Source: a virus
Reading direction: 5' to 3' (one strand)
Length of the DNA stretch: 57,004 nt
IMG/VR virus record: IMGVR_UViG_3300047497_000008
Span: 1-57,004 of that record
Shown: positions 340 to 54,306 of the stretch, one piece after another
Layout of the letters: each line of letters opens with the position of its first letter
How positions within the stretch are numbered: position 1 is the stretch's first letter
Position numbers and translations under genes: made by a program
The notes under the pieces: model-generated
Databases searched by the model: none
Told to the model about the DNA's origin: nothing
The model's input: the letters and a program-made list of their open reading frames with translations, nothing else

Positions 340-390
340 AGTTTCCAATTCTCCCGCGAGTTACCCGCGTGCCGTTGTTGGCGACACGCG

Positions 391-403
391 GGAACTTAGT
401 TCC
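391..403. repeat. GGAACTTAGTTCC palindrome
   Basis: Intergenic, 52 nt upstream of ATG 339. Confidence 0.95.
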
Positions 404-417
404 GACAGGCCGAGCGG

Positions 418-939: not shown

Positions 940-1221
940 ATGGAAGCCGAGGTTATACCATTGCCGGGCTGGTTGGCAACAATACCGCCCATCGAGCGAG
1001 AGCTTTACTATAACAAGTTCATACTGAATGTTGCCGCGTTGTACGTGAGTCCTGAAATGAGTCTCAACGCGCTTGCCGACAAGCTGGAAATCTCGCCACC
1101 AGCGCTCCACCATCAAATGTCGCGGACGGGCGGCATCTCGGAGCGGTGGGTGATGAGGATAAATCGGCTCGTGGGATCGAAGATCCTGCCGATCGCAAAG
1201 ATAAACCCGCGCTTCCGTTGA
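940..1221 (+). CDS. small HTH-type DNA-binding protein (putative regulator)
   Basis: 93-aa ORF with an AAGGAG RBS. The segment MSLNALADKLEISPPALHHQMSRTGG looks like a helix-turn-helix. Confidence 0.6.
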   Translation: MEAEVIPLPGWLATIPPIERELYYNKFILNVAALYVSPEMSLNALADKLEISPPALHHQMSRTGGISERWVMRINRLVGSKILPIAKINPRFR

Positions 1222-1251: not shown

Positions 1252-3771
1252 ATGGCAGTACCGGGGGAAAGCGCCTTCATGGCGCTCTACGCACTCGACG
1301 CCGTAGAAAACGGGTACGAAATCGTACCGATAAAGCTGGACTCCAAGGCTCCAGTGTTTGCAGAGTGGCAAAAAGTACCAAGTAATAAGAAGACGGTGCA
1401 AAACTGGATACCGCAATACGGGCGAAACGGTTTTGGCATCCGAACAAAACTCACTCCAGGCGTAGATATAGACTGTCTTGACGCCGATCTGGTCGAGCAA
1501 ATGGTCGATTTCGTGCAATGCGAAGTCGGATTCGGCCCTGTCCGCGTTGGAAAAGCGCCAAAAACCCTTCTCGTCTACCGATCGTCGGTCCCGTTCAAGA
1601 AGGTGTCGAGCAAGGTTTGGGTTGATGAGTGGTTACAGGAAAACAAGGTTGAAATTCTCGGCGACGGGCAGCAATTTGTCGCTTACGGCATTCACCCCGG
1701 CACGAAAGCGCCCTATCGATGGATCGGCCGCGACACGCCTCTAGTAACGGCGGCTGGGAAGCTCTGTGAGATCACACAAGAGCAAGCGCGAGCGATCTGC
1801 GCCGAGTTTGACCGGCTGGCCGAGCTGAAAGGCTGGGAGCCGAAGCGAAACACGTCGCCGCAGCTCACGAACGGCCACCTGCGCGATCCCGACGACGTGT
1901 TCTTGAGCGATACGCCGATCGCCGATATCTCGTCAGAACAGCTTAGGGCGAAACTGTTCTCGATCCCGAATGATCCGATGGAGGGTGAACAGGATTACGA
2001 TACTTGGACGAACATCGGTATGGCGTTGCACCACCAATTCGACGGCGCCGACGAAGGATACGATCTTTGGGTTGAGTGGTCGGAACAATCGAGCAAGCAC
2101 GAAATCGGGCAGAACGAATACAAGTGGCCGTCGTTCAAGCATGACGAGAGCCGGGCGCCGATCACGGCGCGGTACATCATAAAACTGGCCGGCGAGTTTG
2201 AAGCCGAAGAGATCCGCGAACAGAAAGCCTCGATCGAGCAACTACTGGCAAACGCGTTGAACGCGCAGCACATAAAAGAGCTATGCGCCAAAGTCAAAGA
2301 AGTGAAGTTGGACGACTTCGACAGATCCGAGCTGCAAAAGCGAATCCAAAAACGCTACAAGGATCTGACCGGCCACGTTCTCACGAGCGCCGAAGTCCGC
2401 AAGCTCACGCGATACGAACAGCCGGGCGACTTGCTCCGGGCAAGTCACAAATGGCTTGAGGATTGGGTTTTCATTTCGGGTGAAGGTAGGTTCCAGCAGC
2501 TCAACGGCGACCCGTTGGCATTGAGCCGAGAAGCGTTCAATCTCGCGTTCGCGCATAAGCTGTTGACGCCGACTGAAATCGCCGAAGGCCAGTCCGTGCC
2601 GAGCGTGGAGCCATCCACCTTCGCGATAACGAATTACGGAATCCCAGTCGTCAACGCGATGATCTATGCACCCGATCAGGACCGGGTTTTCACGCGTGAC
2701 GGCGTGCAGTACGGCAACACCTATTCGGAAGCTGGCCGGGCCGTCATACCGGAACTAAGTTCCGCACGCGACCGTGAGAACGTCAAGCTGGTCGAGAAGC
2801 ATTTCGAGCATCTTATCGAAGACGAACTAGAGCGCGAAATGTTCAAATCGTGGATTGCTTGGGTCGTTCGCAAACCCGGCAACCGCGTGAAATGGGCTGT
2901 CCTGTTGCAAGGCGCCAAGGGTATCGGCAAGACGACTCTTTTCAACTTGTTCGAGGCGATCCTTGGCGAGTCCAATTGTCAGGCCGTCAGCAACGATGAC
3001 CTGAAGGGCGTCTATAACGAATGGGCGATGAAGTCGCTGGTGTTCGTGGAGGAAGTGAAGGCGCAAGGGTCACAGTACGACGTGTTGAGCCGTCTCCAGA
3101 TATTCATTACTAATGACAAGATCCCAATCCGGCGTATGCGTATTGCCCCGTTCAATGTTCGGAATTATGCGAGCTATCTGTTGACGACAAATCGTGTGAA
3201 CGCGTTACCGTTAAGTGAGGACGAGAATCGTTACTACGTCATCTTCTCACGGTGGCAGGAATCCAACGCCGAAGAGTACGCCGCGTGGGCGGCCGAGAAT
3301 CCCAAATACTTCGATCGACTTCGCCGGGCGATCAGCGAATCTCCGGGCGCGTTGCTCAAGTGGTTCTCAAATATGAAACTGCACCCGAAGTTCAATCCGC
3401 ACGGTCGCGCGATCAAGTCGGAAGGTCGCGATACGATGGTGAGTCTGGAGACAGGCGAGAAGTCGTCGGCGCTGGCGGCATTGCTCGCGGAAGGCGAACC
3501 CGGCATGAACGCGGAGCTGATAAGTTCCACGAATCTACGCCAGCTTATCGGCGAAAACCTGCTCGAGATCCCGTTGACGGGCGGCGGCTGGCGCAACACT
3601 TTGATCGACGCGGGGCTCCGGCCACTAGGTCAAGTGCGGCTGGAGGGCCGATTTGGACCCCAAGAAACCTACTGGAGTCGCACCCCAAAACGCTTCAAAA
3701 ACCTCGATCTAAGCCCGAATTTGGACCTGATGCGAAAGACCCTCGGGATAAAGTCGCCGTCAAGTAGTTAA
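1252..3771 (+). CDS. bifunctional primase-polymerase / D5-P4-type replicative helicase
   Basis: 839 aa. AEP/prim-pol-like motifs: GVDIDCLD, VEILGDGQQFVAYGIHPGT. PriCT-like segment: YDTWTNIGMALHH...GYDLWVEWS. P-loop: LLQGAKGIGKTTLFN. Walker B-like: LVFVEEV. Confidence 0.9.
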   Translation: MAVPGESAFMALYALDAVENGYEIVPIKLDSKAPVFAEWQKVPSNKKTVQNWIPQYGRNGFGIRTKLTPGVDIDCLDADLVEQMVDFVQCEVGFGPVRVGKAPKTLLVYRSSVPFKKVSSKVWVDEWLQENKVEILGDGQQFVAYGIHPGTKAPYRWIGRDTPLVTAAGKLCEITQEQARAICAEFDRLAELKGWEPKRNTSPQLTNGHLRDPDDVFLSDTPIADISSEQLRAKLFSIPNDPMEGEQDYDTWTNIGMALHHQFDGADEGYDLWVEWSEQSSKHEIGQNEYKWPSFKHDESRAPITARYIIKLAGEFEAEEIREQKASIEQLLANALNAQHIKELCAKVKEVKLDDFDRSELQKRIQKRYKDLTGHVLTSAEVRKLTRYEQPGDLLRASHKWLEDWVFISGEGRFQQLNGDPLALSREAFNLAFAHKLLTPTEIAEGQSVPSVEPSTFAITNYGIPVVNAMIYAPDQDRVFTRDGVQYGNTYSEAGRAVIPELSSARDRENVKLVEKHFEHLIEDELEREMFKSWIAWVVRKPGNRVKWAVLLQGAKGIGKTTLFNLFEAILGESNCQAVSNDDLKGVYNEWAMKSLVFVEEVKAQGSQYDVLSRLQIFITNDKIPIRRMRIAPFNVRNYASYLLTTNRVNALPLSEDENRYYVIFSRWQESNAEEYAAWAAENPKYFDRLRRAISESPGALLKWFSNMKLHPKFNPHGRAIKSEGRDTMVSLETGEKSSALAALLAEGEPGMNAELISSTNLRQLIGENLLEIPLTGGGWRNTLIDAGLRPLGQVRLEGRFGPQETYWSRTPKRFKNLDLSPNLDLMRKTLGIKSPSSS
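2751..2763. repeat. GGAACTAAGTTCC palindrome
   Basis: Inside the primase-helicase gene, read as PELSS. Confidence 0.95.
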
Positions 3772-4144: not shown

Positions 4145-4492
4145 AGCCCGGAGAACGCGTTTTCAGGAAAAAATTTTCACCGAAACGACGGCCGAAGAGC
4201 CGGATCGGTCGATCTCTGGTCCAGGATGACGCGTTTGCCACGAAAAATTGGACCTGTCTGGCCGTTTTCGCAAAATTTCCCCCACCGGGCTCAGCGCCCC
4301 TCGCCCACCGCGCCAGGACCCTAGGAGGGACCCAAACACCCTTCAACCCCTTGATTTTGCACGCTTTTCCGATGTTTTCCCGCTCTAGGGATGGGCGATC
4401 TACCGCACCTAAAATCCGCGCGTTCCCGCTCAAAACCTGAGGCAATCCCTCACTTTTCGCCGATCCAGCCGCGTTCCTGTCACCTGCATCTA

Positions 4493-4505
4493 GGAACTCA
4501 GTTCC
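4493..4505. repeat. GGAACTCAGTTCC variant palindrome (centre C)
   Basis: First unit of the 30-bp tandem repeat. Confidence 0.9.
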
Positions 4506-4522
4506 ACCGTGCGGCCGATCTC

Positions 4523-4535
4523 GGAACTCAGTTCC
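4523..4535. repeat. GGAACTCAGTTCC variant palindrome (centre C)
   Basis: Second unit of the 30-bp tandem repeat. Confidence 0.9.
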
Positions 4536-4888
4536 ACCGTGCGGCCGATCTCGGAACCACATCCGAGACGTAGCCAAACATCGCCGCTAATGCCGATTTG
4601 CCGGCCGCCTGGTGGGGGAAAAGGGATAGGCCGCTAGGGTAGTACCAGAATGGGGTCAACATCGCTGTACGGCCGTTAAAACGGCACTAGCGTCGATTTC
4701 AACCTGCGAGACGTGTTCATCCCACACTCATACAACCGATAACGCGTCTGTCCGACCAAAGTGGCCGATTTGCGACTATTGCACGTTTGTATAACATCGT
4801 GAGATATCAACGCGTTAAGGCGTAAATTAGTACACTGGCTTACTACCTTCTCACACCTGGTACGCGGTGCAGCGTCGTTTCGGACAAC

Positions 4889-4920: not shown

Positions 4921-4928
4921 GTCGAGGT

Positions 4929-4941
4929 GGAACTTAGTTCC
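4929..4941. repeat. GGAACTTAGTTCC palindrome
   Basis: Lies between the stop of 4953..5159 and its terminator. Confidence 0.95.
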
Positions 4942-4952
4942 GATGGTCGCTG

Positions 4953-5535: not shown

Positions 5536-5542
5536 CTCACTC

Positions 5543-5555
5543 GGAACTTAGTTCC
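5543..5555. repeat. GGAACTTAGTTCC palindrome (17-bp TCGGAACTTAGTTCCGA)
   Basis: Lies between the stop of 5567..6007 and its terminator. Confidence 0.95.
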
Positions 5556-5566
5556 GAACGACGCGG

Positions 5567-6007
5567 CTAGGACGCGACTCCTGACGCTAGGCTGTTAAGC
5601 CGTAGCAGGCCCAGATCATGCTGTAACAGCGTTTTAAGGTAGCGCTGTAGAGCGCGCCGCAACACTGGTCGGCATGGTCCCGACACCTTTACCGAGATCC
5701 CGTCGAATAACGGCTTTACCGTCGCGAAATTCGACGCGTGGAATCCCGCTTTCTCGTCTCGGAAATAGAGCGCAATCGTGATCCGAGACTCGTCGGAATG
5801 CTTTAGATCGATCGTTCCGCGAATCGCTTTAGTCGTTAGATCCGGCTCGGGATAGATCACATGATTCAGATAATCCGCTTCGAGTCTGTGAATCTCAGAT
5901 CTCATGGCGTTTGCTCGTTCAGGATAATTGTTATCCCGTAGCGTACGGTACGCAATAACGAGTTTATGTATCTGCCGTATTAGCGTGATATCTTTCGACG
6001 CGTACAT
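5567..6007 (-). CDS. hypothetical protein
   Basis: 146-aa ORF with AAGGAG 9 nt upstream of ATG 6007. Confidence 0.65.
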   Translation of the reverse strand: MYASKDITLIRQIHKLVIAYRTLRDNNYPERANAMRSEIHRLEADYLNHVIYPEPDLTTKAIRGTIDLKHSDESRITIALYFRDEKAGFHASNFATVKPLFDGISVKVSGPCRPVLRRALQRYLKTLLQHDLGLLRLNSLASGVAS

Positions 6008-8021: not shown

Positions 8022-9263
8022 CTACTCGATATTGAAGGGAACGACGATTCCGAATGGTGCTGTATCGTCACCAGTCGAAAGCCAAAGAACGGGATAGGTC
8101 GGAACGATTGACGGAAAAGACCCGTACAGATCCGTCAAGTAAATCAGGCAATCGGGATCTTGTCCGAACCCTGATATCTCGTCAAAAACAGGCTCAAATC
8201 TTGTCCCTCCCGTTTCTGTGATTTCCAGCGTCACGGGATAATCGTTTGGCGTAAACTGGACAACGCCAGATACGCGGGAGTGACAGTAGATCACTGTCAC
8301 CAGATCCGGCTTGACGTCTTCAAGTACCGCGTTAACCATCCCTGAGAACGCGTCTAGCTGTATCCTGCCGATCGATCCGCTCGTATCAACTGCGATCACG
8401 ATATGACCGGGACGTTCCGTGACCATGGATGGCAGATAGAGATTATGCGCGATATAGCGGCGATTAGGCCGCGCTAGGCTGTAATCCGATTTGACCTGCG
8501 ACGTCACGAAATCACGCAACAGGGCAGCCGGATCAACGGGAGGATGTTTTACGCTGTTCAGGATGGCGCGTGTTAACGCGTTTCCCTGTCCGCGCTTTTC
8601 GGCCGCGTTCGCGGCTTGCTCCGCCGCGATCTTCCAATCGCCTGCATCGGGTATCGGATCGCCTTCGGAAGTCATTCCGTCCGGCGCCGGTCGCATGCCG
8701 CCGAACGAGTCAGATGGCTCATCCGATGGCGCGTCGCCATCGCCACCAGCGTCGCTAGGAGCGTCACCAGACGCGCCATCGTCCGATTGGCTATCATCGC
8801 CGCCGGCATCGTCTTCCGCCTCTGTACGCTCATCCTGTTGCGACTGAGAGGGCGCCTTGTCCTGTAGCAGCATGCGATACACGGTATCGGCTGATTTCCC
8901 GGTAAACCGCGAGTCTATCAACACATCCGAGGGTAGCGCAAAGCCGGCTTGTAGGATCATAGGGTTGATCACGTAATCGCATGCACGGTTCCATGTCTCA
9001 TGATCGCGCGTCTTGAGTCGCGAGATATGATCGAAAGCGCAATGCATGACTTCGTGGCAAACGAGTCCCTGAGTTTCGGGAAGACTCAAGGAGTCTATGA
9101 AACTCGGATTGTAACGGAGCGTGACTCCATCCACATCCGCCGTGGGGATATCCGTGCATTCTTCTAACCTAAGACGCAACGCCAAGATCCCGAAGAACAC
9201 CTGACTTTGAACCATTCCGGTTCTCGCCTTAACGAGTTTATGCAAAGCAGTGAGACGTTCCAT
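8022..9263 (-). CDS. VWA-domain protein with N-terminal HExxH metallopeptidase-like domain (DUF2201-type)
   Basis: HEVMHCAFDH in the N-terminal half, an acidic linker, and the MIDAS-like IAVDTSGSI. ATG 9263 has AGGAG 7 nt upstream. The track extension to 9326 only adds the palindrome. Confidence 0.8.
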   Translation of the reverse strand: MERLTALHKLVKARTGMVQSQVFFGILALRLRLEECTDIPTADVDGVTLRYNPSFIDSLSLPETQGLVCHEVMHCAFDHISRLKTRDHETWNRACDYVINPMILQAGFALPSDVLIDSRFTGKSADTVYRMLLQDKAPSQSQQDERTEAEDDAGGDDSQSDDGASGDAPSDAGGDGDAPSDEPSDSFGGMRPAPDGMTSEGDPIPDAGDWKIAAEQAANAAEKRGQGNALTRAILNSVKHPPVDPAALLRDFVTSQVKSDYSLARPNRRYIAHNLYLPSMVTERPGHIVIAVDTSGSIGRIQLDAFSGMVNAVLEDVKPDLVTVIYCHSRVSGVVQFTPNDYPVTLEITETGGTRFEPVFDEISGFGQDPDCLIYLTDLYGSFPSIVPTYPVLWLSTGDDTAPFGIVVPFNIE

Positions 9264-9305
9264 ACCGTGACTCCTGTAGGTTAATCGGTTCCAGAAATGC
9301 GCGTC

Positions 9306-9318
9306 GGAACTTAGTTCC
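9306..9318. repeat. GGAACTTAGTTCC palindrome
   Basis: Intergenic, 43 nt upstream of ATG 9263 (VWA gene). Confidence 0.95.
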
Positions 9319-9338
9319 GCGCGCATCTTAGCAAACGA

Positions 9339-10220
9339 CTAGTAGCAATCTTGCATCGACTCCATGATCGTTTTAGCCGACTCCAGAACTTCCATGCGTA
9401 CCGTTTCATCCTCCCGTAGTGTCTCGGGATCGTAAACACAAAGCCGATCCTGCATTTGTGAAACGAGACTTGCGATTCGCGGATCGTCGGTGAAGTTCAA
9501 ACCCGGCAGCCGTTCCACTAGATCGCGGATGTTTTCCACCAGCGTATCGGCGAACCTATTCTTACGTTTGCCTTCCGCCGTGACTTCAAACTTGGAGAGC
9601 CGTTCCACCATTGTCGAGACACAATCGACAATGCCGCCGTCACGGGTGAGCAGATCCCGTATCGCCATATCCGCCGTCGTGTTGATCCGAGACTCTATGT
9701 CCGTCCTGATTCGCTCGATTTCGTCGGATTGCAAGTTGACGCGGAAGTCAGGTGCTTGCGGCAACGGCATAACGGACGTCGAGAACGCGAATTTCCGCTC
9801 GATTCGGGAGATAGGCGGATAATCGCTCGAGTCGAATGCAGATCCGAGATTCGTCCGTGCTACACGGACGGCTTGCTGATAGTCGCCGAGAAATTCAAGA
9901 ACCGAGTTTTCATAGTCGTTCTTAAACGCGCGCATCGCCTCGATATATTTGAGATAGTTCGCCGCTGGCAAGATTCGGTATCCCGAGTCCGCCCAAGGTA
10001 AAGTCATTTTATAGTGGTAGGTTCGCGCATTGCCGCGTGCCTTTTCGACCGCTTTCAACGACTCGGAATCGACTAGGCTTTTCCAGACTCGCAGATGCCC
10101 ATCTTTCGCGCCTTTCGACGCGATGATTTCGGCCGTGGAGTCTTTGTCCAGTTTGCCGCCGGACCATGCAGAGATAGAGAGGAATATGAGCATCGTCTTA
10201 GACGCTAAATCGATTGCCAT
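9339..10220 (-). CDS. hypothetical protein (possibly DUF3150-like), middle gene of the ATPase/VWA cassette
   Basis: 293-aa ORF with the GAAGGAGCCTGAATCATG cassette. The family guess is from memory only. Confidence 0.7.
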   Translation of the reverse strand: MAIDLASKTMLIFLSISAWSGGKLDKDSTAEIIASKGAKDGHLRVWKSLVDSESLKAVEKARGNARTYHYKMTLPWADSGYRILPAANYLKYIEAMRAFKNDYENSVLEFLGDYQQAVRVARTNLGSAFDSSDYPPISRIERKFAFSTSVMPLPQAPDFRVNLQSDEIERIRTDIESRINTTADMAIRDLLTRDGGIVDCVSTMVERLSKFEVTAEGKRKNRFADTLVENIRDLVERLPGLNFTDDPRIASLVSQMQDRLCVYDPETLREDETVRMEVLESAKTIMESMQDCY

Positions 10221-10553: not shown

Positions 10554-11615
10554 TCAGATCAGAATGTCAGAATGCTTGGAACCCCAGGCGATGAACGCGG
10601 GAGTCGATGCCAGGGCGCCGTTTGCCGCCACAGCGGACGTTACTAGAAACGCCGCTATCTCCGGCGCCATCCGCTCCGCATATCGGAGCACGGTCGCAAA
10701 GTTCTCGTCTGTCGCATTCCGGGCCAGCATTCCCGCGCAAGCGAATAGGACGGAGGGATCTGTCGGGACGTCGATCCCCTCTGGATCGCGTAGGATCGAC
10801 GCTAGCCGTGGCATGCGATCCGCCACGCGCATGAAACCGAGAAACTCGATCGCGACGCTCCTACCGATGGTCCCCTCGATCAGCTCGCGTTCGATTCCCG
10901 CGCGCGGGAACGGCACGTCACGACCCTCGGTCGCATCGTACCGCGCCATGCAATCCGCCGACTCATGGAGCGTGTCAGATACCGCATGCCATGTGCGCGG
11001 AGACGGGAAAGCGTCGGCGAGGGGATCGAACGCGTAGAACACGGACTGATTCTTGTGTTCCCGGAACTGTAGGAAGGCCGGGACCATCGGGTGAATGCCA
11101 ACCGTCGCCGCCCATTCACACCATTGGGCGAGATCCGGCTCTAGGCTGACAACCTGCATACGGGATAGGACAGTTGCAGGGAGTCGCGTGCCGTTCACTC
11201 TGTCGGATAGGAGATTCGCGGCCGCAATAATCGTTACGTTGTCACCGAGTCTGTGACCGTGGCTCTGACGCGTATGGATGACATTCATTAACGCGTTTAG
11301 GACAGCCGGCGTTGCCTTGTCCAGCTCGTCGAAGAACAGGATTACGTGTTCATCGGAACTAAGTTCCGGCATGATGACCGGTCGCAGGTAAGTCAGCCGA
11401 TCCCCTACAGGATACGGAAGACCTCCCGCGTCAACGGGATCGAGGCGAGCCGCCTCATAGACATAGACCCGCGCGTTGTTCAGGATCTTGGCGGCGGCAA
11501 ACGGTACCGCGCTCTTGCCTGTCGCGGGAGATCCCCTTAGCAGGATCGGACGGCGACGCGCGACAGGGGATCTCGCCCTATCGCATACCATGTCAATAGC
11601 TTCATTCGGTTTCAT
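10554..11615 (-). CDS. AAA+ ATPase, MoxR/CbbQ (AAA_5)-like
   Basis: Walker A LLRGSPATGKS and Walker B VILFFDELDKA. 353 aa with an AAGGAG RBS. Confidence 0.85.
   Translation of the reverse strand: MKPNEAIDMVCDRARSPVARRRPILLRGSPATGKSAVPFAAAKILNNARVYVYEAARLDPVDAGGLPYPVGDRLTYLRPVIMPELSSDEHVILFFDELDKATPAVLNALMNVIHTRQSHGHRLGDNVTIIAAANLLSDRVNGTRLPATVLSRMQVVSLEPDLAQWCEWAATVGIHPMVPAFLQFREHKNQSVFYAFDPLADAFPSPRTWHAVSDTLHESADCMARYDATEGRDVPFPRAGIERELIEGTIGRSVAIEFLGFMRVADRMPRLASILRDPEGIDVPTDPSVLFACAGMLARNATDENFATVLRYAERMAPEIAAFLVTSAVAANGALASTPAFIAWGSKHSDILI
11355..11367. repeat. GGAACTAAGTTCC palindrome
   Basis: Inside the AAA+ ATPase gene, read as PELSS just before Walker B. Confidence 0.95.
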
Positions 11616-13146: not shown

Positions 13147-13184
13147 ACCCTAGGGTACACAACCGGCCGATACCGGATTGGTTC

Positions 13185-13197
13185 GGAACTTAGTTCC
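13185..13197. repeat. GGAACTTAGTTCC palindrome (19-bp TTCGGAACTTAGTTCCGAA, 13182-13200)
   Basis: Intergenic, 26 nt upstream of ATG 13223. Confidence 0.95.
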
Positions 13198-13222
13198 GAA
13201 ATCGCTACAAGGAGATATCTCT

Positions 13223-13847: not shown

Positions 13848-14258
13848 ATGCACTTCGATGTATTGCGGGAAGCCAACGCCGCCCGTGTCGGGCTGTTCAA
13901 GAATGCCAAAGGCGAGACGCAACACTCAGGCGTTGGTGCCGGCGACGAATGGACGCCGAACGATTGGTTTACGGCCATGGCCGGCGAGCTTGGTGAAGCT
14001 GGGAACGTCCTCAAGAAAATCAGGCGCGGCGACTTCACGATGGACGAAGCTCGTCATAAGGTCGCGCAAGAACTGGCCGACGTGGTTATCTATCTCGATA
14101 TGCTGGCCCACGCGTGCGGAATCAATCTCGGGCAAGCGGTGATGGATACATTTAACGCCAAGAGTCGGGAAAAGAGTTTGCCTATCCTCATTCGTGAACG
14201 CGGCCTCCATCACGGGCGGCATCAGTCGTATTGCGTGATAGATACGAACAAACCATGA
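13848..14258 (+). CDS. MazG-like nucleoside triphosphate pyrophosphohydrolase
   Basis: AGGAGG RBS. Motifs AMAGELGEAGNVLKKIRRGD and ELADVVIYLDMLAHACGINL. Confidence 0.8.
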   Translation: MHFDVLREANAARVGLFKNAKGETQHSGVGAGDEWTPNDWFTAMAGELGEAGNVLKKIRRGDFTMDEARHKVAQELADVVIYLDMLAHACGINLGQAVMDTFNAKSREKSLPILIRERGLHHGRHQSYCVIDTNKP

Positions 14259-14857
14259 GCTTCGATTTCCTGCTGCACGATGTTGTCGGCTACGCCGATT
14301 TCGAGGATGACGACGGAGTTCCAGCCATCAAACAGTTTCGCACCCTCCTAACTCGGCGCTGGGGTGGATCGGACGGCAGGAATTTCGTGCTTTGGGTGAT
14401 GCTCAACCCGTCAACGGCAACCGGCGTTCGGAACGACCCGACGCTGAAAGCAATCATAGAAATGACGCATAACATGGGATACAACGCGCTGCGCGTCGTC
14501 AATCTCGTGACCTACAGAACGTCAATACCGAGTCAGCTCTACGCATGGCTGGATAAGCAGAAAGAACCTCAAGGCGCGTATCTCGACAAGTGCGCGAATC
14601 TGATATGGTTCCAGATTCAACTCGCAAGCGAAGTTATCCTGGCCCACGGGCAACACGTTCTTGTGAAACGCCGCGAACCGTGGCACCGCGTACTGTTGCG
14701 AACGCAAGCCCAGCTCGTGTACAAGTTCACCGTTGACGCCGGCCACGTTCCGTTGTGCGTCGGCGTCAATCGAGACGGCTCGCCGCGTCATCCGCTGGCG
14801 CGCGGTGGGCATCGCGTACCGCGTGACGTGATCCCGCAACCGTTCACAATGAGGTAA
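14255..14857 (+). CDS. DUF1643-family protein
   Basis: ATGA overlap with the upstream stop. RRWGG...FVLWVMLNPSTATGVRNDPTLK...GYNALRVVNLVTYR matches the DUF1643 signature as I remember it. Confidence 0.7.
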   Translation: MSFDFLLHDVVGYADFEDDDGVPAIKQFRTLLTRRWGGSDGRNFVLWVMLNPSTATGVRNDPTLKAIIEMTHNMGYNALRVVNLVTYRTSIPSQLYAWLDKQKEPQGAYLDKCANLIWFQIQLASEVILAHGQHVLVKRREPWHRVLLRTQAQLVYKFTVDAGHVPLCVGVNRDGSPRHPLARGGHRVPRDVIPQPFTMR

Positions 14858-14860: not shown

Positions 14861-15058
14861 ATGAGTCGGTATCTAGGAGCACGTACCAAGTTCACGTTGA
14901 GAATCCCGCTTGAGCTGCATGTTACGCTTACCAGATCCGCCACGTGGCTTGGCGTACCGCTCAACGATTACATCATAAAGCGTTTACGTGAGGTAGAAGG
15001 AACATATGTCAGTGCCGAAATCACCGAGACCCCGCAAACCGCGCGCCAAAAAATCTAA
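14861..15058 (+). CDS. Arc/MetJ-type ribbon-helix-helix DNA-binding protein
   Basis: FTLRIPLELHVTLTRSATWLGVPLNDYIIKRL reads as a beta strand plus two helices. The stop lies 3 nt before the 19-bp palindrome 15061-15079. Confidence 0.65.
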   Translation: MSRYLGARTKFTLRIPLELHVTLTRSATWLGVPLNDYIIKRLREVEGTYVSAEITETPQTARQKI

Positions 15059-15063
15059 CACTC

Positions 15064-15076
15064 GGAACTTAGTTCC
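15064..15076. repeat. GGAACTTAGTTCC palindrome (19-bp CTCGGAACTTAGTTCCGAG, 15061-15079)
   Basis: The 19-bp form starts 3 nt after the Arc-like gene stop. The core lies 8 nt upstream of ATG 15084. Confidence 0.95.
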
Positions 15077-15083
15077 GAGACAC

Positions 15084-15681: not shown

Positions 15682-15685
15682 TACC

Positions 15686-16069
15686 ATGCCGAAAGACGAT
15701 ATGAACAAGCCGACGTATCTGGTGGCGTTTCGCACGTTTCCACGCGCTCTTGCTGCCGTCGATCGTCACATGCGAGCACATGCAATCAAGCACGGCGACA
15801 ATCCGCGAGAATTTCTCAATGTTCAAGACGGATACCGTCGATACAGTGAAGCGCTGTTGCGGCACGTCGGCCGAATCGGCGAAGGCTCCGCGCTCGCTCA
15901 TGCGGTCGCGGTTGCCGCCAACGCGTTGATCGCACTTGAGATTGCCCTGGAGCATGACACGTTGGAACCAAGTTCCGAGGCGCAACAGCTCACGCTCGAT
16001 CGTGCCGCGTTCCTCAAGGATCGATACGACGGCGTGCCGGGCGGCGATCACCCGAACGGAAAAATCTGA
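15686..16069 (+). CDS. helical NTP-diphosphohydrolase-like protein (DUF5664-type, tentative)
   Basis: AGGGGGAG RBS. AIKHGDNPREFLNV..YRRYSEALLRHVGRI..ALAHAVAVAANALIALE resembles the KYG..NW..RH..H pattern. Confidence 0.5.
   Translation: MPKDDMNKPTYLVAFRTFPRALAAVDRHMRAHAIKHGDNPREFLNVQDGYRRYSEALLRHVGRIGEGSALAHAVAVAANALIALEIALEHDTLEPSSEAQQLTLDRAAFLKDRYDGVPGGDHPNGKI
15964..15976. repeat. GGAACCAAGTTCC degenerate copy
   Basis: Inside gene 15686..16069. The 5-bp arms GGAAC/GTTCC are kept. Confidence 0.5.
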
Positions 16070-16159: not shown

Positions 16160-17296
16160 ATGCCCGACACCGCTGGCGAAGCAACCGCCGGAATCGATGT
16201 TCCGTCCATTCTCACTCACATGGGCGCCGTCAAGCGCAACTATTGGATGGCCGATCTGGACATGATCCACATCCGGCCGGATTTCAACAAGCGGGACAAG
16301 AAAGATCCCGAGTATGGCGCGCATATCGATCTGCTCACGCGCAACATGCTGGAGGAAGGCTTTCGCGAAGACCGGCCGCTGCTTGTCAAGATCGCCAACG
16401 TCTCCGGTCTCGATCGCCTCGTGCTGGTGGATGGAGAGTCCCGTATGCTCGCCGTCGCCAAGGCCAACGAGTCGCTGCCCGAGGAACGCAAGATCGTCGC
16501 CGTCCCGATCATCGTCAAAACGGACCTGACGCCCGAAGAAGAGCTGCTGACCATGGTTCGCTCGAATCAAGGGCGTCCGTTTACGCCGATCGAGCTGGGA
16601 TCGGTGATCGTGGATTACATGAACCTGCCCACGGCTACCGGTGAAAAGCGCGGCGACAACGAAGTGGCGGCGCAGTTCAACGTGACTCCGCGCTACATCA
16701 ACGATCTGCTCCTGCTCGCCAAGGCACCGAAGTACCTCAAGGATCTCGTCGCGGCTGGCACCGTTTCCAGTACGCTCGTTCGTGAAGAGCTGCGCGCCGA
16801 CCCGAAGAAGGCCACTGCCCGGTTCAAGGAAGCCGTCGCCGCCATGAAGGCGGCGGGCAAGGACAAGATCACGAAGAAGTACCTGCTGAAAGCGGGCGCG
16901 GAGACGCCGGCCGAAGGAGAGCCGCCTGTCGTCAAGTCGTACAAGCTGAACGACGCGGATTTCCCGAAGGCCGCGATCCAATACGCCCTGGATACCATGA
17001 TTCACGGCGAAGATCCGACGGCACAGCTCCTGTGGCTGGATGCCTGGAGCAGCGGCGACACGGAAGCCGTCGCCGATCTGGAGAAATACAAGGGCTGGCC
17101 GGCTGGGAGCACGAACAACCCGAAGGCTCGCACGGTCAAGCCGCCCAAGAAGGCTCGCAAGCCCAAGGCGCCGAAGGAAGGCACCAAGGCGGCCGAGAAC
17201 GTCAAGAAGGACACCGCTGCCGCCGCGAAGACGCCCGGCAGGCGGAAGCCCCAGGCGACGGCGCCCGCCGCCGACGACGGACTCGCCGGGCTCTAA
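16160..17296 (+). CDS. ParB/KorB-family protein (N-terminal ParB/Srx domain + HTH + basic tail); no ParA partner
   Basis: AGGAGG RBS. N-domain IHIRPDFNKR and LVLVDGESRMLAV (GxxR box). HTH region RSNQGRPFTPIELG...VAAQFNVTPRYINDLLLLAKAP. K/P/A-rich C-terminus. Confidence 0.85.
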   Translation: MPDTAGEATAGIDVPSILTHMGAVKRNYWMADLDMIHIRPDFNKRDKKDPEYGAHIDLLTRNMLEEGFREDRPLLVKIANVSGLDRLVLVDGESRMLAVAKANESLPEERKIVAVPIIVKTDLTPEEELLTMVRSNQGRPFTPIELGSVIVDYMNLPTATGEKRGDNEVAAQFNVTPRYINDLLLLAKAPKYLKDLVAAGTVSSTLVREELRADPKKATARFKEAVAAMKAAGKDKITKKYLLKAGAETPAEGEPPVVKSYKLNDADFPKAAIQYALDTMIHGEDPTAQLLWLDAWSSGDTEAVADLEKYKGWPAGSTNNPKARTVKPPKKARKPKAPKEGTKAAENVKKDTAAAAKTPGRRKPQATAPAADDGLAGL

Positions 17297-17365: not shown

Positions 17366-17569
17366 ATGTGGCACGGAAGGCCGTTGACCCTTACGAGATC
17401 CGAGCGCAAAACCGCCGACGAGCTGAAGCCCGTCGTCATGCCGCTGGCGAAAGAGCTGTACCCGAAGTTCGACCGCTGGCCGGATTACAGTCGGGATCAA
17501 GCACTACGCCGACTTATTCGGCTCGTCTCGATCCTGCGTATGCTAGGCTGGACGCCGCCCGTATCATGA
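17366..17569 (+). CDS. hypothetical protein
   Basis: 67-aa ORF with an AGGAGA RBS. Confidence 0.6.
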   Translation: MWHGRPLTLTRSERKTADELKPVVMPLAKELYPKFDRWPDYSRDQALRRLIRLVSILRMLGWTPPVS

Positions 17570-18057
17570 CTCAGGATCTCCCGCGCCCCTGCATGATCGT
17601 GGCCGGCTCCCGGTCGATCTATAACTACAAGCTGACACTGCAAGCGGTCAAACGTGTCGTCATGATCCTGCATCACGACACCCCAAAGTCGATCATGTCC
17701 GGCATGGCGGCGCGCGGCCCTGACTCTCATGCAGGTACGATCGCAATCATGCTTGGCCTTCCCCTCATTCCACGCCCGGCAAAATGGTTCCCCAACGGCA
17801 AGAACGCGCCGATGGACCGTGGCGCCGGCTTCAAGCGAAACGCCCAAATGGCGGTCGAAGCGGATCTGCTCACAGCCATGTGGGATGGCGAGTCACGTGG
17901 CACGGCGCACATGATCTGCGCCATGCTGGATTTACGCAAACCTGTTTATGTGTTCAACGTCGGAGGGAGACAGTACGATGTGGAAGAGTTCACCGAGCAG
18001 GCTCGAGTCGTCCTGGCACGGACGGAATACCAATCCCGAGAAGCTGGTACCGATTAA
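17566..18057 (+). CDS. SLOG-superfamily protein (DUF2493 / YspA-DprA-like)
   Basis: ATGA overlap with the upstream stop. Motifs MIVAGSRSI...IMSGMAARGPDSHAG...GAGFKRNAQMAVEADLLTAMWDGESRGTAHM. Confidence 0.7.
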   Translation: MTQDLPRPCMIVAGSRSIYNYKLTLQAVKRVVMILHHDTPKSIMSGMAARGPDSHAGTIAIMLGLPLIPRPAKWFPNGKNAPMDRGAGFKRNAQMAVEADLLTAMWDGESRGTAHMICAMLDLRKPVYVFNVGGRQYDVEEFTEQARVVLARTEYQSREAGTD

Positions 18058-18447: not shown

Positions 18448-18455
18448 TCCATCCC

Positions 18456-18468
18456 GGAACTTAGTTCC
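18456..18468. repeat. GGAACTTAGTTCC palindrome (+GAGTGT flank)
   Basis: The only structured element in the 27-nt convergent gap between the plus and minus operon ends. Confidence 0.95.
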
Positions 18469-18474
18469 GAGTGT

Positions 18475-20759: not shown

Positions 20760-21251
20760 CTACGTGATGATTGCTTGCTTGTAGGTATCGTATGCTTGGA
20801 CTGCGCTCGTCATGGATTTGGTAACTTCCTCGATCGTCGCGGCGCCCAACACCGTGTTGTAAACTCGTTTGTAGTAAGCCGCGAGTGCTGGAGCGTCTCC
20901 CGCGTCGGGCAGCGGCGCCGGATCGACATAATACCTGAGTCGGCACAGCGCGCACGCAAGATACAGATTCCCCGGTAGCTGCGCCAGCGCGGACACCGAA
21001 GGCATCGCAAACGCGGCCAGCTTCTCGGCGAACCGCTCTGGCACACGCGCATAGAGATCCGCTACGGTAGCCGGCTCCAACTGCCACGGCGACACGGCTG
21101 GACCGCGTATCTGGATCAGGTACGTCCCGGCGTTTGACTCCTGAATTGCGGTTCCCAGCACGAGCTGTTCCGCTGCCGGGCTGTCGAGCATTAGATACGT
21201 CAGCGTAGGAGCGATGACCGCCTGAAGCAGTTGCGAGAGGTCGATACCCAT
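20760..21251 (-). CDS. putative endolysin (lytic transglycosylase-like)
   Basis: GTAIQESNAG resembles the SLT catalytic E-S motif. It lies between two membrane-protein genes. Confidence 0.5.
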   Translation of the reverse strand: MGIDLSQLLQAVIAPTLTYLMLDSPAAEQLVLGTAIQESNAGTYLIQIRGPAVSPWQLEPATVADLYARVPERFAEKLAAFAMPSVSALAQLPGNLYLACALCRLRYYVDPAPLPDAGDAPALAAYYKRVYNTVLGAATIEEVTKSMTSAVQAYDTYKQAIIT

Positions 21252-21252
21252 C

Positions 21253-21265
21253 GGAACTAAGTTCC
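21253..21265. repeat. GGAACTAAGTTCC palindrome
   Basis: Its centre supplies the TAG stop of 21257..21514. It ends 2 nt before ATG 21251. Confidence 0.95.
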
Positions 21266-21514
21266 TTGTGTTGGCGGCGCGGCGGGAGGGAGCTTGTCGG
21301 CAGTCGTGAGGGAGCGGCCCACGATGCCGACAATCAGGACTCCGACCGTCACGCGGATGATTAAGTGGTAAGGAAGTTCCGCCTTGATATCGTCCGGTAG
21401 AACTTCAAGCGAACTGAGAAGCGCGATGCTCGCGGCCATCGCTTGAGTGGAAACGTAAGAGAAAATCCGATGTGCGTTCGGGATAAACCGAATATCTAGC
21501 GGGTTCAAATTCAC
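21257..21514 (-). CDS. small two-TM membrane protein (holin candidate)
   Basis: GTG start with AGGAG 7 nt upstream. Its TAG stop is the centre of the palindrome at 21253-21265. Confidence 0.5.
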   Translation of the reverse strand: MNLNPLDIRFIPNAHRIFSYVSTQAMAASIALLSSLEVLPDDIKAELPYHLIIRVTVGVLIVGIVGRSLTTADKLPPAAPPTQGT

Positions 21515-24420: not shown

Positions 24421-24446
24421 GGTGCTGAATCCTTTCTTTGTCGTTC

Positions 24447-24459
24447 GGAACTTAGTTCC
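24447..24459. repeat. GGAACTTAGTTCC palindrome (17 bp with TC/GA flanks)
   Basis: Intergenic between the two fibre genes, 27 nt upstream of ATG 24420. Confidence 0.95.
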
Positions 24460-24465
24460 GACGCG

Positions 24466-28165: not shown

Positions 28166-28189
28166 GTGAACCGGACGGGCGCGTGTTTC

Positions 28190-28202
28190 AGAACTTAGTT
28201 CC
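28190..28202. repeat. aGAACTTAGTTCC near-copy (12/13, +GAGTGA flank)
   Basis: Lies 7 nt after the stop of 28209..28436. Confidence 0.85.
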
Positions 28203-28208
28203 GAGTGA

Positions 28209-29269: not shown

Positions 29270-30663
29270 GTTTCATCTCGCGTCGATTGGAAAGTTATCG
29301 CCACGGTGGCGCCGCCGGCCATGTCGGATCGGTGCAGGATATCTATAGAGTCTTGTGCCAGCCGCGAGTACACCATGAACGATATAAACTTGACTTGCGA
29401 AGCCGCAACCGTGGGCGGTGCCGTATCGAGAAACAGGCGCTCAAGGGCGCTACCACTCGGAACCGATACGGACGTGATGCGCGCTTGGAACTTAGTTCCG
29501 TCGCGCATCAGCATATAGATATCCTGCCGCCCTTCAAACGGCCCGAAGATGGCCATTCCGATAGGGTTCACGTCTATGTAGCCGTTAGACGATACGATAT
29601 TCTCGGCCGGCACAAGATCTTGCGCGAACGACGGCACCCATACGGGAACGCGTTGTCCGCAAAGTGTGTAGAGAAGATCCACGAGAGCCCAATACTGCGC
29701 GCGACCAAACAAAACCCAAGTGTTAATCTGCGCCGAGAACTGCGTCCCTGCCGTGTCGATCTGGATCGTGGCGCCCGTGTCGCCATCTAGTATCTCGACC
29801 ATGCGAGTAACCGCTGTCGAGATATCCTGACTCTCGTCCGGCCGCGTCTCAAGCATGATAGCGCCGCGATACGAATTGAATGTAGTCGCTGGCGTGTAGT
29901 ATTGCGTTCCCTGCACGAGATATTTCACAGTCGCCTTGAACGCGCGAGATCCTTGCCGGCTGTACGTTGGCTGTGTATCGACGCGCGCGCTCACGATGGG
30001 GTACACGCGCGCTCCGGCGCCCCAGGAGAGCCCTGTCGGGTTAGTCAGGCCCAAGGTGCCGCTGCCGACCGTTTGCACCCCTACAAGCTCACCGGCGAGC
30101 GCTGTACGCCCTCGTATGAACGCATACCCTTCGGCAAAGCGTGTGTTGACGGTTTTGACATAAAGAGTCGTGATTCCAGCCGGCGCCGCTTCTAGTAACT
30201 TGCCGCCGTCCTGCCAGTCCGGCAGATAGAACGTAGACCCGCCGTAAGCACGCATGAAAAGATCGAACGACGCCCGATCCTGATTGAACACAGTGTAGGA
30301 GATTTCCAGATAGCGGCGCGGCGAAAGTCGGAGCTGCCGGCGTTGCTCGTGGCCGAACTTGGAAACGAATACGTCGGTCATCCACTCGAACGTTTCCGTG
30401 ACGCCTTGATCCCAATCTGGCGGAACGACAACGGACGGCGGCGGCGCGATAGGCGTAGGCGGGACGTAAAGAACTTCGCCGACCATGGCGCCGATGACGG
30501 TCAGCGATGCGTGAGTCCTGATAACTTCGCCGACGAGACCGCCCGCGTGCGCGACCGAGGCCGCGAATACAGGGACTTCGCCGACGACGGAGCCGACTTT
30601 GACCGACGTCGTTCCAGCGACGTCTAGCTCCGTAACGAAAGATCCGACAACCGCCTCAGTCAT
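29266..30663 (-). CDS. distal tail / tail-tip protein
   Basis: 465 aa with ATGA coupling on both sides. It sits between the TMP-proximal gene and the DUF2163 gene. Confidence 0.65.
   Translation of the reverse strand: MTEAVVGSFVTELDVAGTTSVKVGSVVGEVPVFAASVAHAGGLVGEVIRTHASLTVIGAMVGEVLYVPPTPIAPPPSVVVPPDWDQGVTETFEWMTDVFVSKFGHEQRRQLRLSPRRYLEISYTVFNQDRASFDLFMRAYGGSTFYLPDWQDGGKLLEAAPAGITTLYVKTVNTRFAEGYAFIRGRTALAGELVGVQTVGSGTLGLTNPTGLSWGAGARVYPIVSARVDTQPTYSRQGSRAFKATVKYLVQGTQYYTPATTFNSYRGAIMLETRPDESQDISTAVTRMVEILDGDTGATIQIDTAGTQFSAQINTWVLFGRAQYWALVDLLYTLCGQRVPVWVPSFAQDLVPAENIVSSNGYIDVNPIGMAIFGPFEGRQDIYMLMRDGTKFQARITSVSVPSGSALERLFLDTAPPTVAASQVKFISFMVYSRLAQDSIDILHRSDMAGGATVAITFQSTRDET
29487..29499. 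repeat. GGAACTTAGTTCC palindrome
   Basis: Inside the tail-tip gene 29266..30663, read as GTKF. Confidence 0.95.
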
Positions 30664-30664: not shown

Positions 30665-31696
30665 CTAAGTCGTTCTCACATATCCGGCCGTGATGCTGTT
30701 GAGCGCGGCGGGAGTCCACGCTACGCCAGTAGCCGGATTGTTCTGCCAGCTCCAACTATACCATTGCGGCGTCGTACTCAGGAAAATCTCGTCGCTGTAG
30801 TATTTTGTGCCGCCCACGTTTATGAAGAATTTGACTCCTGCGGCTCCTGAATCGCTCTTCCACATATAGTATTTGACACTGGCGCACAGGATCGTAAGGC
30901 TCGTATCGACCGAAAAAAGGCCGTACTCGTCCTCAAGCCCTGTCGTCGCTGCCGAGTTGAACGTGACCGTCTGTGTCGTCTTGTTGATGTTGGTATGATT
31001 CGCGGCACCTGTGCTCGACGTCCACTCGCTCACCGAATCTGAGACCGGGAAATACGGAACCGTGATCCGGCCTTCACCGAGAAAACCTGTCTCGCTGATC
31101 GCTAGGCTGGCAAAGCCGGCGGTCGCTGAAAAGAAACGCAGAACGTTTATGTATGCGGACTGACCCGTAGCAACATCCGACGCACTCTTGACGGAAACGC
31201 CGTTCAGTTTGACTTCAAAGGCGCCCGATCCTTCCGTAAATGGTGCAGAGCCTCCGGTCCATGGTCCTAGATCGACGTGAAATCCGATATGGATTTGACT
31301 TGTGCCGCCGAACAAACCGACTGCGGACGCCCATAGAAGAGTGTACTGAGACGCGCCAGGCAAACCGTTCGAGTAGAAATAGACCGATAGCTGCCCAACA
31401 AGCCCGTCGATCTTCAGGTAGCATTGATCAACGTGGCCGTCCGCGCTAAAGAATACAGTTTTCACGTCAGTCGATAGTTGGCACTTGAACTCGGCCGTGA
31501 TGCTCGTAAGGTTCTCGGCTATCGCGACGTTCGGGTTACTGTACCCATCCCAGGTAAGCTCGCCGAGAGAAGTTTCCCCAAACGCGTTTCCTTGCATAGA
31601 AAAATACGTGAGCTGTCCAATACGAGAGTTCGAATCGCCTTCGTTATTGTAACCCTGCATACCTTCGATTACTGGAAACGGATAAGCCATCGTCAT
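30665..31696 (-). CDS. tail protein (beta-rich, lectin-like)
   Basis: 343 aa, immediately downstream of the tape measure gene with an ATGA overlap. Confidence 0.6.
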   Translation of the reverse strand: MTMAYPFPVIEGMQGYNNEGDSNSRIGQLTYFSMQGNAFGETSLGELTWDGYSNPNVAIAENLTSITAEFKCQLSTDVKTVFFSADGHVDQCYLKIDGLVGQLSVYFYSNGLPGASQYTLLWASAVGLFGGTSQIHIGFHVDLGPWTGGSAPFTEGSGAFEVKLNGVSVKSASDVATGQSAYINVLRFFSATAGFASLAISETGFLGEGRITVPYFPVSDSVSEWTSSTGAANHTNINKTTQTVTFNSAATTGLEDEYGLFSVDTSLTILCASVKYYMWKSDSGAAGVKFFINVGGTKYYSDEIFLSTTPQWYSWSWQNNPATGVAWTPAALNSITAGYVRTT

Positions 31697-41567: not shown

Positions 41568-41610
41568 TTGTCACTCTCCGTAGTTATGAGCTTCGCGTTA
41601 CCGTGCGCCC

Positions 41611-41623
41611 GGAACTTAGTTCC
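41611..41623. repeat. GGAACTTAGTTCC palindrome (17-bp CCGGAACTTAGTTCCGG)
   Basis: Intergenic, 44 nt upstream of the major capsid ATG 41567. Confidence 0.95.
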
Positions 41624-41629
41624 GGCGCG

Positions 41630-54265: not shown

Positions 54266-54284
54266 GATGTTCTCCCAAGCGTTC

Positions 54285-54297: not shown

Positions 54298-54306
54298 GAG
54301 TGACGA

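Follow-up and report, generated by a model that had tools for sequence, protein, structure and literature searches.

The viral sequence analysed here (IMG/VR record IMGVR_UViG_3300047497_000008, positions 1 to 57,004; 57,004 nucleotides, hereafter the window) carries at 16160..17296, on the plus strand, a gene for a ParB-like protein and, around the whole genome, copies of one short palindrome which this protein probably reads. The open reading frame (ORF) starts with ATG, has its stop codon within these coordinates and encodes 378 amino acids, among them the segment LVLVDGESRMLAV; its GC content at third codon positions (0.81) is the highest among the ORFs scored. A sequence-only reading of the same DNA had placed the product in the ParB/KorB family, and this was borne out by a match to PHROG 1033, 'ParB-like partition protein' (E=1e-39), as well as by the Spo0J and KorB matches given below. 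When submitted alone to Pfam, the protein gave just a sub-threshold match to the KorB helix-turn-helix (HTH; E=0.14). Since a word-indexed protein search retrieved only the window protein, the ParB of phage BcepNazgul (Nazgul) and one other, the family is visible only by exhaustive HMMER searching, which yielded 2,627 representative clusters at E<=1e-3.

Comparison of the family profile with the PDB revealed Thermus thermophilus Spo0J (1vz0, E=2e-11), in a single alignment running through the N-domain boxes I-III and the HTH; Myxococcus xanthus ParB, Noc and KorB were also matched. The AlphaFold2 model of the window protein has a mean predicted local distance difference test score (pLDDT) of 80.7, with values above 90 at residues ~30-245. 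Using Foldseek, its closest structure is the KorB-KorA-DNA complex 8qa9 (template modelling score 0.69 on the target), followed by ParB and Noc, the alignments to KorB, ParB and Noc spanning ~220 residues. The following parts were recognized in the protein:

16247..16564 (+): N-terminal ParB/Srx-type nucleotide-binding-fold domain, ~residues 30-135 (Spo0J profile alignment, pLDDT >90)
16586..16852 (+): ParB/KorB-type HTH DNA-binding domain, ~residues 143-231 (Pfam in the family, model helices, pLDDT >90)
16688..16720 (+): predicted recognition helix PRYINDLLLLA, residues 177-187, in which Arg178, Tyr179 and Asp182 covary with palindrome type
16769..16798 (+): second putative DNA-facing helix, residues 204-213, with Arg208 (helix by analogy with ParB-family structures)
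17111..17254 (+): disordered basic K/P/A-rich tail, ~residues 318-365 (sequence, pLDDT <60)
17255..17293 (+): acidic/hydrophobic C-terminal peptide ...PAADDGLAGL, its character conserved in the family

The ParB-type HTH of the sequence-only reading is thus supported both by Pfam, with HTH_ParB detected in 58 and KorB in 42 of the 76 aligned family members, and by model confidence over the helices at 143-231; its long basic tail is likewise present and predicted to be disordered. Box I comprises N43..R45, box II, noted earlier as a GxxR that deviates from GERR, is G92-E-S-R95, and box III starts at N136..R139. N43, R45, G92, R95, N136 and E145 are invariant columns in the family, and the pocket residue R139 is also conserved. 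By analogy with ParB/Noc-DNA structures, helix 204-213 would face the DNA. Its Arg208 is found in the window ParB alone, all relatives having Ile, Leu or Val. The N-terminal 30 residues are conserved within the family, a short helix being modelled at 14-20, and beyond residue 250 the model consists of three lower-confidence helices (268-309), the disordered tail and the acidic/hydrophobic end. In the homologues at loci L001-L029 and L199 the C-terminus is an acidic stretch with a final hydrophobic residue (...DDGLAGL, ...AEGL, ...EDLSGL, ...DEEVDI, ...DPADDL), resembling a partner-docking peptide such as the C-terminal tail of the single-stranded DNA-binding protein SSB.

No ParA or SopA ATPase had been noticed in the earlier reading, nor any sign of lysogeny, and both statements held. 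The deviant Walker A motif KGGxGK[ST] occurs in no frame of the window, whose P-loop proteins are the primase/helicase, a MoxR-type AAA+ protein and TerL only. The MoxR-type protein (10554..11615) was considered as a cryptic ParA and ruled out by its DUF3150 and DUF2201/VWA neighbours. A regular-expression search of the window ParB found no ParA-interaction motif, defined as (L/F/I)G(K/R)G(L/F/I) (PMC12704722), and no integrase-like or repressor-like protein was seen among the window ORFs scanned. All ORFs of at least 300 amino acids were assigned by family or homology (replication, MoxR/DUF2201 operon, ParB, tail, head, packaging), except 30665..31696, which sits within the tail module. Sequence comparison and the model together place the gene product, by fold and family, in the ParB/KorB/Noc group, as a member that lacks a ParA partner.

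The window is a circular assembly in which bases 1-127 repeat 56878-57004, giving a unit of ~56.88 kb, the same size as a Logan contig (56,872 bp). No near-identical DNA was found in the phage collection. The ParB, tail, head and replication proteins share 30-53% identity with those of BcepNazgul and AH2 (Burkholderia phages, Casjensviridae), R16L and R22L (Erythrobacter phages) and Carli (a Sphingomonas phage), with gene order conserved. From this homology, the window phage is a distant relative of the Nazgul-type phages.

The palindrome CGGAACTWAGTTCCG is present, at no more than one mismatch, in 21 copies in the window versus 0.01 expected from shuffles. Two variants with a central C and one weak variant bring the total to ~24, in agreement with the number of dispersed palindromes counted earlier. 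Its form is (C)GGAACTWAGTTCC(G), 13-15 bp, and ~23 sites lie ~2.5 kb apart around the 56.9-kb genome. They are more evenly placed than expected by chance, the coefficient of variation (CV) of their spacing being 0.55 versus 0.94 for random placement (P=0.002). The predicted cognate site of the window ParB, deduced from the sequences, is CGGAACTTAGTTCCG. The sites, given without strand, are as follows:

390..404: intergenic site GGGAACTTAGTTCCG, 14 nt beyond the stop codon of 418..786(-)
2750..2764: site within the primase gene
4492..4506: variant AGGAACTCAGTTCCA with centre C, in the first 30-bp tandem repeat of a non-coding region
4522..4536: variant CGGAACTCAGTTCCA with centre C, in the second 30-bp tandem repeat
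4928..4942: site 7 nt from the terminator-like hairpin 4893-4920
5542..5556: intergenic site between hairpin 5508-5535 and the stop codon of 5567..6007(-)
9305..9319: site between two minus-strand genes; a GC-rich flanking dyad extends the stem (-21.9 kcal/mol as RNA)
11354..11368: site within the MoxR-type AAA+ gene
13184..13198: intergenic site, followed after 24 nt by an ATG that has a Shine-Dalgarno sequence
15063..15077: intergenic site that lies 1.1 kb ahead of parB and follows the HicB-like stop codon by 4 nt
15963..15977: weak variant TGGAACCAAGTTCCG, ~190 bp ahead of the start of parB, within the preceding gene
18455..18469: site between convergent genes, 1.2 kb downstream of parB
21252..21266: site abutting the start codon of 20760..21251(-)
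24446..24460: site in the 45-bp gap between two tail-fibre genes
28189..28203: site CAGAACTTAGTTCCG, in a small-ORF region upstream of the large tail-protein gene (Nazgul homologues annotated as tail assembly chaperones)
29486..29500: site within a tail gene, with an extended flanking dyad
35877..35891: site within the tape-measure gene
39154..39168: site at the 3' end of 39110..39748(-); the next start codon follows after 34 nt
41610..41624: intergenic site, 43 nt upstream of the major capsid gene
45201..45215: site at the head-tail adaptor/portal gene boundary
48291..48305: site ahead of the probable start of TerS (profile match from ORF residue 47 onward)
49945..49959: site at a methyltransferase-like/helicase gene boundary
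54284..54298: intergenic site, 19 nt upstream of the next start codon
56876..56890: site TGGAACTTAGTTCCG, repeated in truncated form at window bases 1-13 through the assembly overlap

A scan of 1-20 kb for sigma-70 promoters and terminators gave fewer promoters than in shuffled sequence and no association with the sites, except that one of them was scored as a weak terminator; Rfam and tRNA scans of the window gave no matches.

One palindrome family, GAA-N-T-n-A-N-TTC, is shared by the window and its relatives (BcepNazgul, R16L, Carli and ~60 metagenomic loci), with 18-39 copies in the three complete relatives:

R16L: GAAGTnACTTC, 25-31 copies
Nazgul: GAAGTAACTTC, 18-21 copies
Carli: GGAAAYSRTTTCC, 30-39 copies

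In these three genomes 64-73% of the sites are intragenic, including sites in tape-measure, polymerase and terminase genes, which suggests that the sites function on DNA and are not bound to gene boundaries. Intergenic or edge positions are nevertheless enriched in the annotated relatives, holding 27-36% of the sites versus ~6% non-coding DNA. Among these relatives, spacing is most regular in Carli (CV 0.50, P<1e-4), followed by R16L (CV 0.60, P=0.005) and Nazgul (CV 0.70, P=0.09). Erythrobacter and Burkholderia phages use the same GAAGT motif, whereas Erythrobacter and Sphingomonas phages, from the same host order, differ. Since the motif does not follow host taxonomy, a phage-encoded reader is favoured, and a host-specific Chi-like or LexA-like site was ruled out. 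An extracytoplasmic function sigma factor -35 element (GGAAC) or a -10-like element was also considered and rejected, as the relatives use GAAGT or GAAAT and there appears to be no consistent downstream element. At L026, L103/L104 and L136/L135 mixed half-sites occur within one site (for example GAACTnACTTC and GAAGTnATTTC), and the ParB of L026 has an intermediate helix, KKYVDN; judged by sequence, these hybrids and this helix look like natural intermediates of a switch in specificity. At one locus (L013 = L121, IMG/VR 3300044998_000155) ParB is present and palindromes are absent, and there are ~10 tandem copies of a unit with ATATACGCAT.

For comparison of protein with site, ParB-bearing loci were collected from IMG/VR (21), metagenomes (33) and bacterial genomes (3), and a further 80 loci were anchored on the conserved large tail protein (lambda J-like). 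The only candidate sequence-specific DNA binders conserved between the window and the complete relatives are ParB, a 93-amino-acid HTH protein and TerS. Over ~70 loci, the recognition helix of ParB (taken here as window residues 176-186) sorts perfectly with the variable base of the half-site:

Helix xRY[LIV]xD: half-site GAAGT, at ~45 loci with hosts as distant as Erythrobacter and Burkholderia
Helix xRH[LIV][DN]N: half-site GAAAT, at 6 loci (Carli, L153, L122, L163, L170, L172)
Helix PRYIND, with Arg208 (only here) in the next DNA-facing helix: half-site GAACT, at 1 locus, the window

Between type A (GAAGT) and type C (GAAAT) ParBs there are three fixed differences in ~240 aligned columns, P143M, Y179H and D182N. 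The last two stand one helical turn apart on the recognition helix, for which we estimate a chance probability of ~0.006.

Presence and density of the sites also follow the protein. All 13 tail-protein-anchored loci that have palindromes and the syntenic region encode ParB, and tail-protein phages without palindromes have none. L156 and L189 were examined as cases of palindromes without ParB and set aside, their contigs ending at the gene that adjoins the parB position in Carli. ParBs lacking Arg178 (QKY, SGY, KTY, KGY, PKY and others) are accompanied by few sites or none. Among de-duplicated loci of at least 8 kb, 19 have Arg178 and dense sites, four Arg178 and sparse sites, none dense sites without Arg178, and six neither (Fisher P=4e-4, uncorrected for phylogeny). 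L010 and L011, with a type-A helix in a short protein, possess only one or two sites, of the predicted GAAGT type. ST79 and PY223, scanned earlier, contain no sites. AH2, Delftia phage RG-2014, L203, L204 and L205 were examined after the helix and Arg178 rule had been set. AH2, which has the Nazgul backbone and the helix TPKYVSD without Arg178, contains no sites in 58 kb, nor does RG-2014 contain any. L203, a contig of a Rhizobium metagenome-assembled genome with the helix TERYIDD, has four sites in 5.6 kb, and the prophage-like loci L204 and L205, without Arg178, have none. ParB is 375-430 amino acids long at site-dense loci, mostly with K/A/P-rich tails, versus 288-330 at site-poor or site-free loci. 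In a partial measurement, 128-203 residues follow the HTH at dense loci (Nazgul 55) versus 58-113 at sparse ones; the anchor motif of this scripted measurement was unmatched in a third of the sequences, and the correlation of tail with density therefore rests on ORF lengths.

Based upon these comparisons, the window ParB probably reads the palindromes. In the sequence-only reading this link had been purely conjectural; it now has comparative support from helix covariation at ~70 loci, co-occurrence in 13 of 13 and the Arg178 rule. Our confidence was lowered by a lineage that has the same motif without a detected ParB, and this and several other observations weigh against the assignment. The link is correlational, and the independent evolutionary switches on which it draws are few, ~3-4 (type A to C, type A to B, dense to sparse). 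The Pfam ParBc model reaches E<=0.01 in none of the 76 family members. Where canonical ParB has GERR, box II reads GESR in the window and DGHTR or DGEHR in relatives, and in box III the Glu is replaced by Ser, with Asn and Arg kept; because of these two departures, nucleotide binding by the window ParB, CTP (cytidine triphosphate) above all, can be called no more than plausible on sequence grounds. The Glu residues that serve hydrolysis in canonical ParB are variable in the family, and the ParB fold can bind ATP or GTP (adenosine or guanosine triphosphate) too (PMC12704722). In addition, neither of the window's two main divergent promoter regions (787-939, 12227-12403) contains a site, which disfavours a simple operator model.

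The lineage in question is represented by two contigs, L083 (IMG/VR 3300032046_001821) and L065 (3300032053_003064), with the identical CGGAACTWAGTTCCG at five and three sites, respectively. Their GC content is 44-47%, their tail proteins are 75% identical to each other, and the lineage is unrelated to the window phage. All but one of the sites on each contig are intergenic, 7-45 nt ahead of start codons, and one directly follows a TATAAT box. No ParB homologue was found in the 13-15 kb examined, which span the whole non-structural module. Searches with hidden Markov models, phmmer and low-stringency BLAST revealed no protein shared between these contigs and the window, except for a low-complexity similarity to the tape-measure protein. 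An exact-motif scan of IMG/VR returned chance single matches and this lineage only, and no close relative of the window phage. The shared motif may have arisen by convergence, there being ~4,096 possible half-sites and exactly this motif having been sought in 2.9 million contigs. Alternatively, this lineage and the window phage could share a small reader below detection, or the reader could lie elsewhere in the L083/L065 genomes.

These contigs speak for the view that some other factor reads the palindromes and ParB binds something else, the candidates being the small HTH protein (940..1221), the HicB-like ribbon-helix-helix (RHH) protein (14861..15058) or a host protein. Conserved counterparts of the small HTH protein, which has 93 residues and whose gene lies directly ahead of the primase gene, are present in Nazgul, Carli, R16L and AH2, and the stop codon of the RHH gene is followed after 4 nt by a palindrome. 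The HTH protein is, however, kept in AH2 with its site-free 58 kb, does not covary with the motif, and has a putative recognition helix that differs between Nazgul and R16L though both have GAAGTWACTTC. For the RHH protein, BLAST detected no homologue in any of the three complete relatives, all of which have sites. Both proteins, and the Arc-like, RHH and HTH proteins that the sequence-only reading had kept as alternatives in general, thus fare worse than ParB. A host reader is unlikely in view of the distribution of motifs over Erythrobacter, Burkholderia and Sphingomonas phages described above. Since the covariation with the ParB helix would have to be coincidence, we regard another reader as unlikely overall.

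A second alternative is that the palindromes act as nucleic-acid structures (intercistronic RNA hairpins, weak terminators, processing or stability elements, or cruciforms) and have no dedicated reader. In the window ~15 of 23 sites are intergenic, commonly lying 4-14 nt behind one stop codon and within 19-45 nt of the start that follows; the folding energy of the core is -5.8 kcal/mol, some extended stems reach -18 to -22 kcal/mol, and two sites adjoin terminator-like hairpins. Given this placement, an added RNA-level role is possible; we read the intergenic gaps as the cheapest place for a strict 15-bp palindrome. Against a structural explanation stands the intragenic majority of sites in Carli, R16L and Nazgul. 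The relatives conserve the 11-bp core only, with stems of 4-5 bp and variable flanks, so that it is the sequence which is kept and not the pairing. Most sites have no U-tract after them, Rfam gave no match, and neither even spacing nor covariation with a DNA-binding helix is expected of RNA elements. Structures without a reader therefore appear highly improbable.

Equally little credence is given to the view that the protein is an enzyme or activator with a ParB fold, for instance a nuclease or NTPase or, like the ParB activators of phage thymine dioxygenases, the partner of a DNA-modifying enzyme, and that its co-occurrence with the palindromes would be lineage history: phage ParB-fold proteins do have diverse non-segregation roles (PMC12704722, PMC13229309), the DGHxR box of the relatives recalls ParB-like nucleases and DndB, and a gene annotated 'cysteine dioxygenase' lies in the same early region of Nazgul and AH2, but the dioxygenase activators have no DNA-binding domain (PMC13229309) whereas the window protein has a confident ParB/KorB HTH, no dioxygenase match was found among the window ORFs scanned, and two of the three fixed differences between motif types fall on the recognition helix.

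One of the closest known systems is that of the IncP plasmid RK2. RK2 has 12 KorB sites, and its KorB also works with the ParA homologue IncC and has a C-terminal dimerisation domain. Like the window protein, KorB is a ParB-family protein with an N-terminal CTPase-fold domain and an HTH, and, as is probable for the window protein too, it recognizes a short palindrome (OB, 13 bp) at dispersed sites on a ~60-kb replicon, some of them far from promoters or intragenic; the best structural match (8qa9) and the Pfam KorB hits in 42 of 76 family members agree with this. As a CTP-dependent sliding clamp, KorB can act on promoters as far as 1.5 kb away, and on RK2 KorA serves as its clamp lock (PMC11790492). 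The window phage differs in having no ParA that could be found and no identified KorA-like partner, the conserved HTH protein at 940..1221 showing no link to the sites. Its site density is about twice that of RK2 (~23 per 57 kb in the window, up to 39 in Carli), and the replicon is a phage in which no lysogeny genes were found. Further differences from KorB are a box II of GESR instead of GERR, main divergent promoter regions without sites, and a C-terminal region which is helical and then runs into the basic K/P/A tail.

Noc of Bacillus is likewise an orphan ParB paralogue without ParA, with many dispersed palindromes over the whole replicon, and was matched both in the PDB profile comparison and by Foldseek. 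It binds dozens of dispersed 14-bp palindromes, spreads in a CTP-dependent manner and marks the chromosome rather than segregating it; it has an N-terminal membrane-targeting helix, and its sites are ~60 kb apart on a bacterial chromosome. Those of the window are ~2.5 kb apart and the protein is phage-encoded. Chromosomal and plasmid ParB proteins (Spo0J, P1 ParB and the SopB proteins of F and N15), with their parS sites, share the fold, the layout of boxes I-III and palindromic sites, and in N15 several centromere palindromes are dispersed in the phage genome. Unlike the window system, these need ParA or SopA and have one or few site clusters; the window sites span the entire genome, its ParB has no ParA-binding motif and no ParA gene was found. 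Tens of copies dispersed through a phage genome are also seen with the stoperators of Cluster A mycobacteriophages and the conserved inverted repeats of phiC31, in which tens of scattered short sites are served by one phage reader. Those readers are immunity repressors of temperate phages and not ParB-fold proteins, and stoperators are asymmetric and orientation-dependent.

For the preferred reading, in which ParB is the reader, we propose the following mechanism. Most likely, a ParB dimer would bind the 13-15-bp palindrome through its HTH. By analogy with ParB, KorB and Noc, for which a dimer-clamp mechanism is established (PMC11790492, PMC7333895), the sites would be loading points for nucleotide-bound, probably CTP-bound, ParB clamps; nucleotide binding would close the N-terminal gate, and the clamps could then slide or spread over ~1-2 kb. 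With sites 1.5-3 kb apart, sliding over such distances would cover the whole chromosome, and the histone-H1-like basic tail may add non-specific DNA contacts or condensation. As biological output, we tentatively prefer genome-wide coating, compaction or self-marking, and place KorB-like long-range transcriptional control second.

The relatives suggest a path from a low-copy parS-like arrangement, with 0-3 sites and a short-tailed protein, to genome-wide dispersal and a basic tail. To judge from the sequences, specificity seems to have been re-tuned at least twice through one to three residues of the DNA-reading helices. Drawing these strands together, we tentatively suggest that the Nazgul-like siphoviruses may possess a virus-encoded 'chromatin', in which a partner-less ParB clamp with an H1-like tail, loaded at palindromes every 1.5-3 kb even within structural genes, would coat the entire chromosome. 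Such a coat might set phage DNA apart from host DNA, compact it, shield it against host nucleases or defence, or time expression genome-wide, and it would have evolved from the parS-like arrangement by re-tunings of this kind. This possibility is one we hold with distinctly less assurance than the assignment of ParB as the reader.

Other features of the window deserve mention. The operon that contains parB, 12404-18447 (+), is rich in nucleotide-pool genes:

13848..14258 (+): MazG-like pyrophosphatase gene
14231..14857 (+): DUF1643 gene
15686..16069 (+): dGTP diphosphohydrolase-like gene
~17566..18057 (+): match to PHROG 289 'GTP-binding domain', directly after parB

A second operon, 8022-11615 (-), encodes a MoxR-type AAA+ ATPase, DUF3150 and a DUF2201 metallopeptidase/VWA protein, for which no BLAST homologues were detected in Nazgul, R16L or Carli:

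10554..11615 (-): MoxR-type AAA+ ATPase gene
9339..10220 (-): DUF3150 gene
8022..9326 (-): DUF2201 metallopeptidase/VWA gene (PHROG label 'HNH endonuclease')

Directly after the primase gene lies a non-coding region of 1.1 kb (3771-4900). AT-rich stretches in it are surrounded by at least 10 iterons, ACCTAAGTAC/ACCTAAGCAC, which occur in either orientation, and by its sequence the region looks like a replication origin. Two 30-bp tandem repeats at 4488-4547 each include one of the centre-C palindrome variants. A palindrome site stands 7 nt beyond each of two near-identical terminator-like hairpins (4887-4923 and 5502-5538; AAAAAATCCCGATAGA...TCTATCGGGATT), and the 27-bp context of these sites, 4928 and 5542, is also repeated.

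Orphan ParB-fold proteins are common in phages and mobile elements, and almost none has an assigned DNA target or role (PMC12704722). The thymine dioxygenase activator of phages, ParB-like and without a DNA-binding domain, has been described (PMC13229309); for AH2 gp28 there is no more than an annotation as regulator (PMC3483164), and the domain receives only a passing mention in the Erythrobacter phage paper (PMC12185513). The words 'repeat' and 'palindrom' are absent from the AH2/BcepNazgul genome paper and have no relevant use in the Erythrobacter phage paper, and broader literature searches found no description of a phage ParB with a dispersed palindrome system. Relative to the literature searched, a phage ParB-palindrome system of the KorB/Noc kind is new. 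To our knowledge its site density is the highest of any ParB-type system, and this on a phage in which no lysogeny genes were found. The predicted cognate site and its natural variants, GAAGT with Y179/D182, GAAAT with H179/N182 and GAACT with R208, would constitute a ready-made specificity code, and the clade, with 0 to 39 sites per genome, includes the cultured phages BcepNazgul, AH2, Carli and those of Erythrobacter. Should coating by clamps prove true, CTP-switch clamps would serve not only in segregation and the silencing of plasmids but also in organising the chromosome of a lytic virus.

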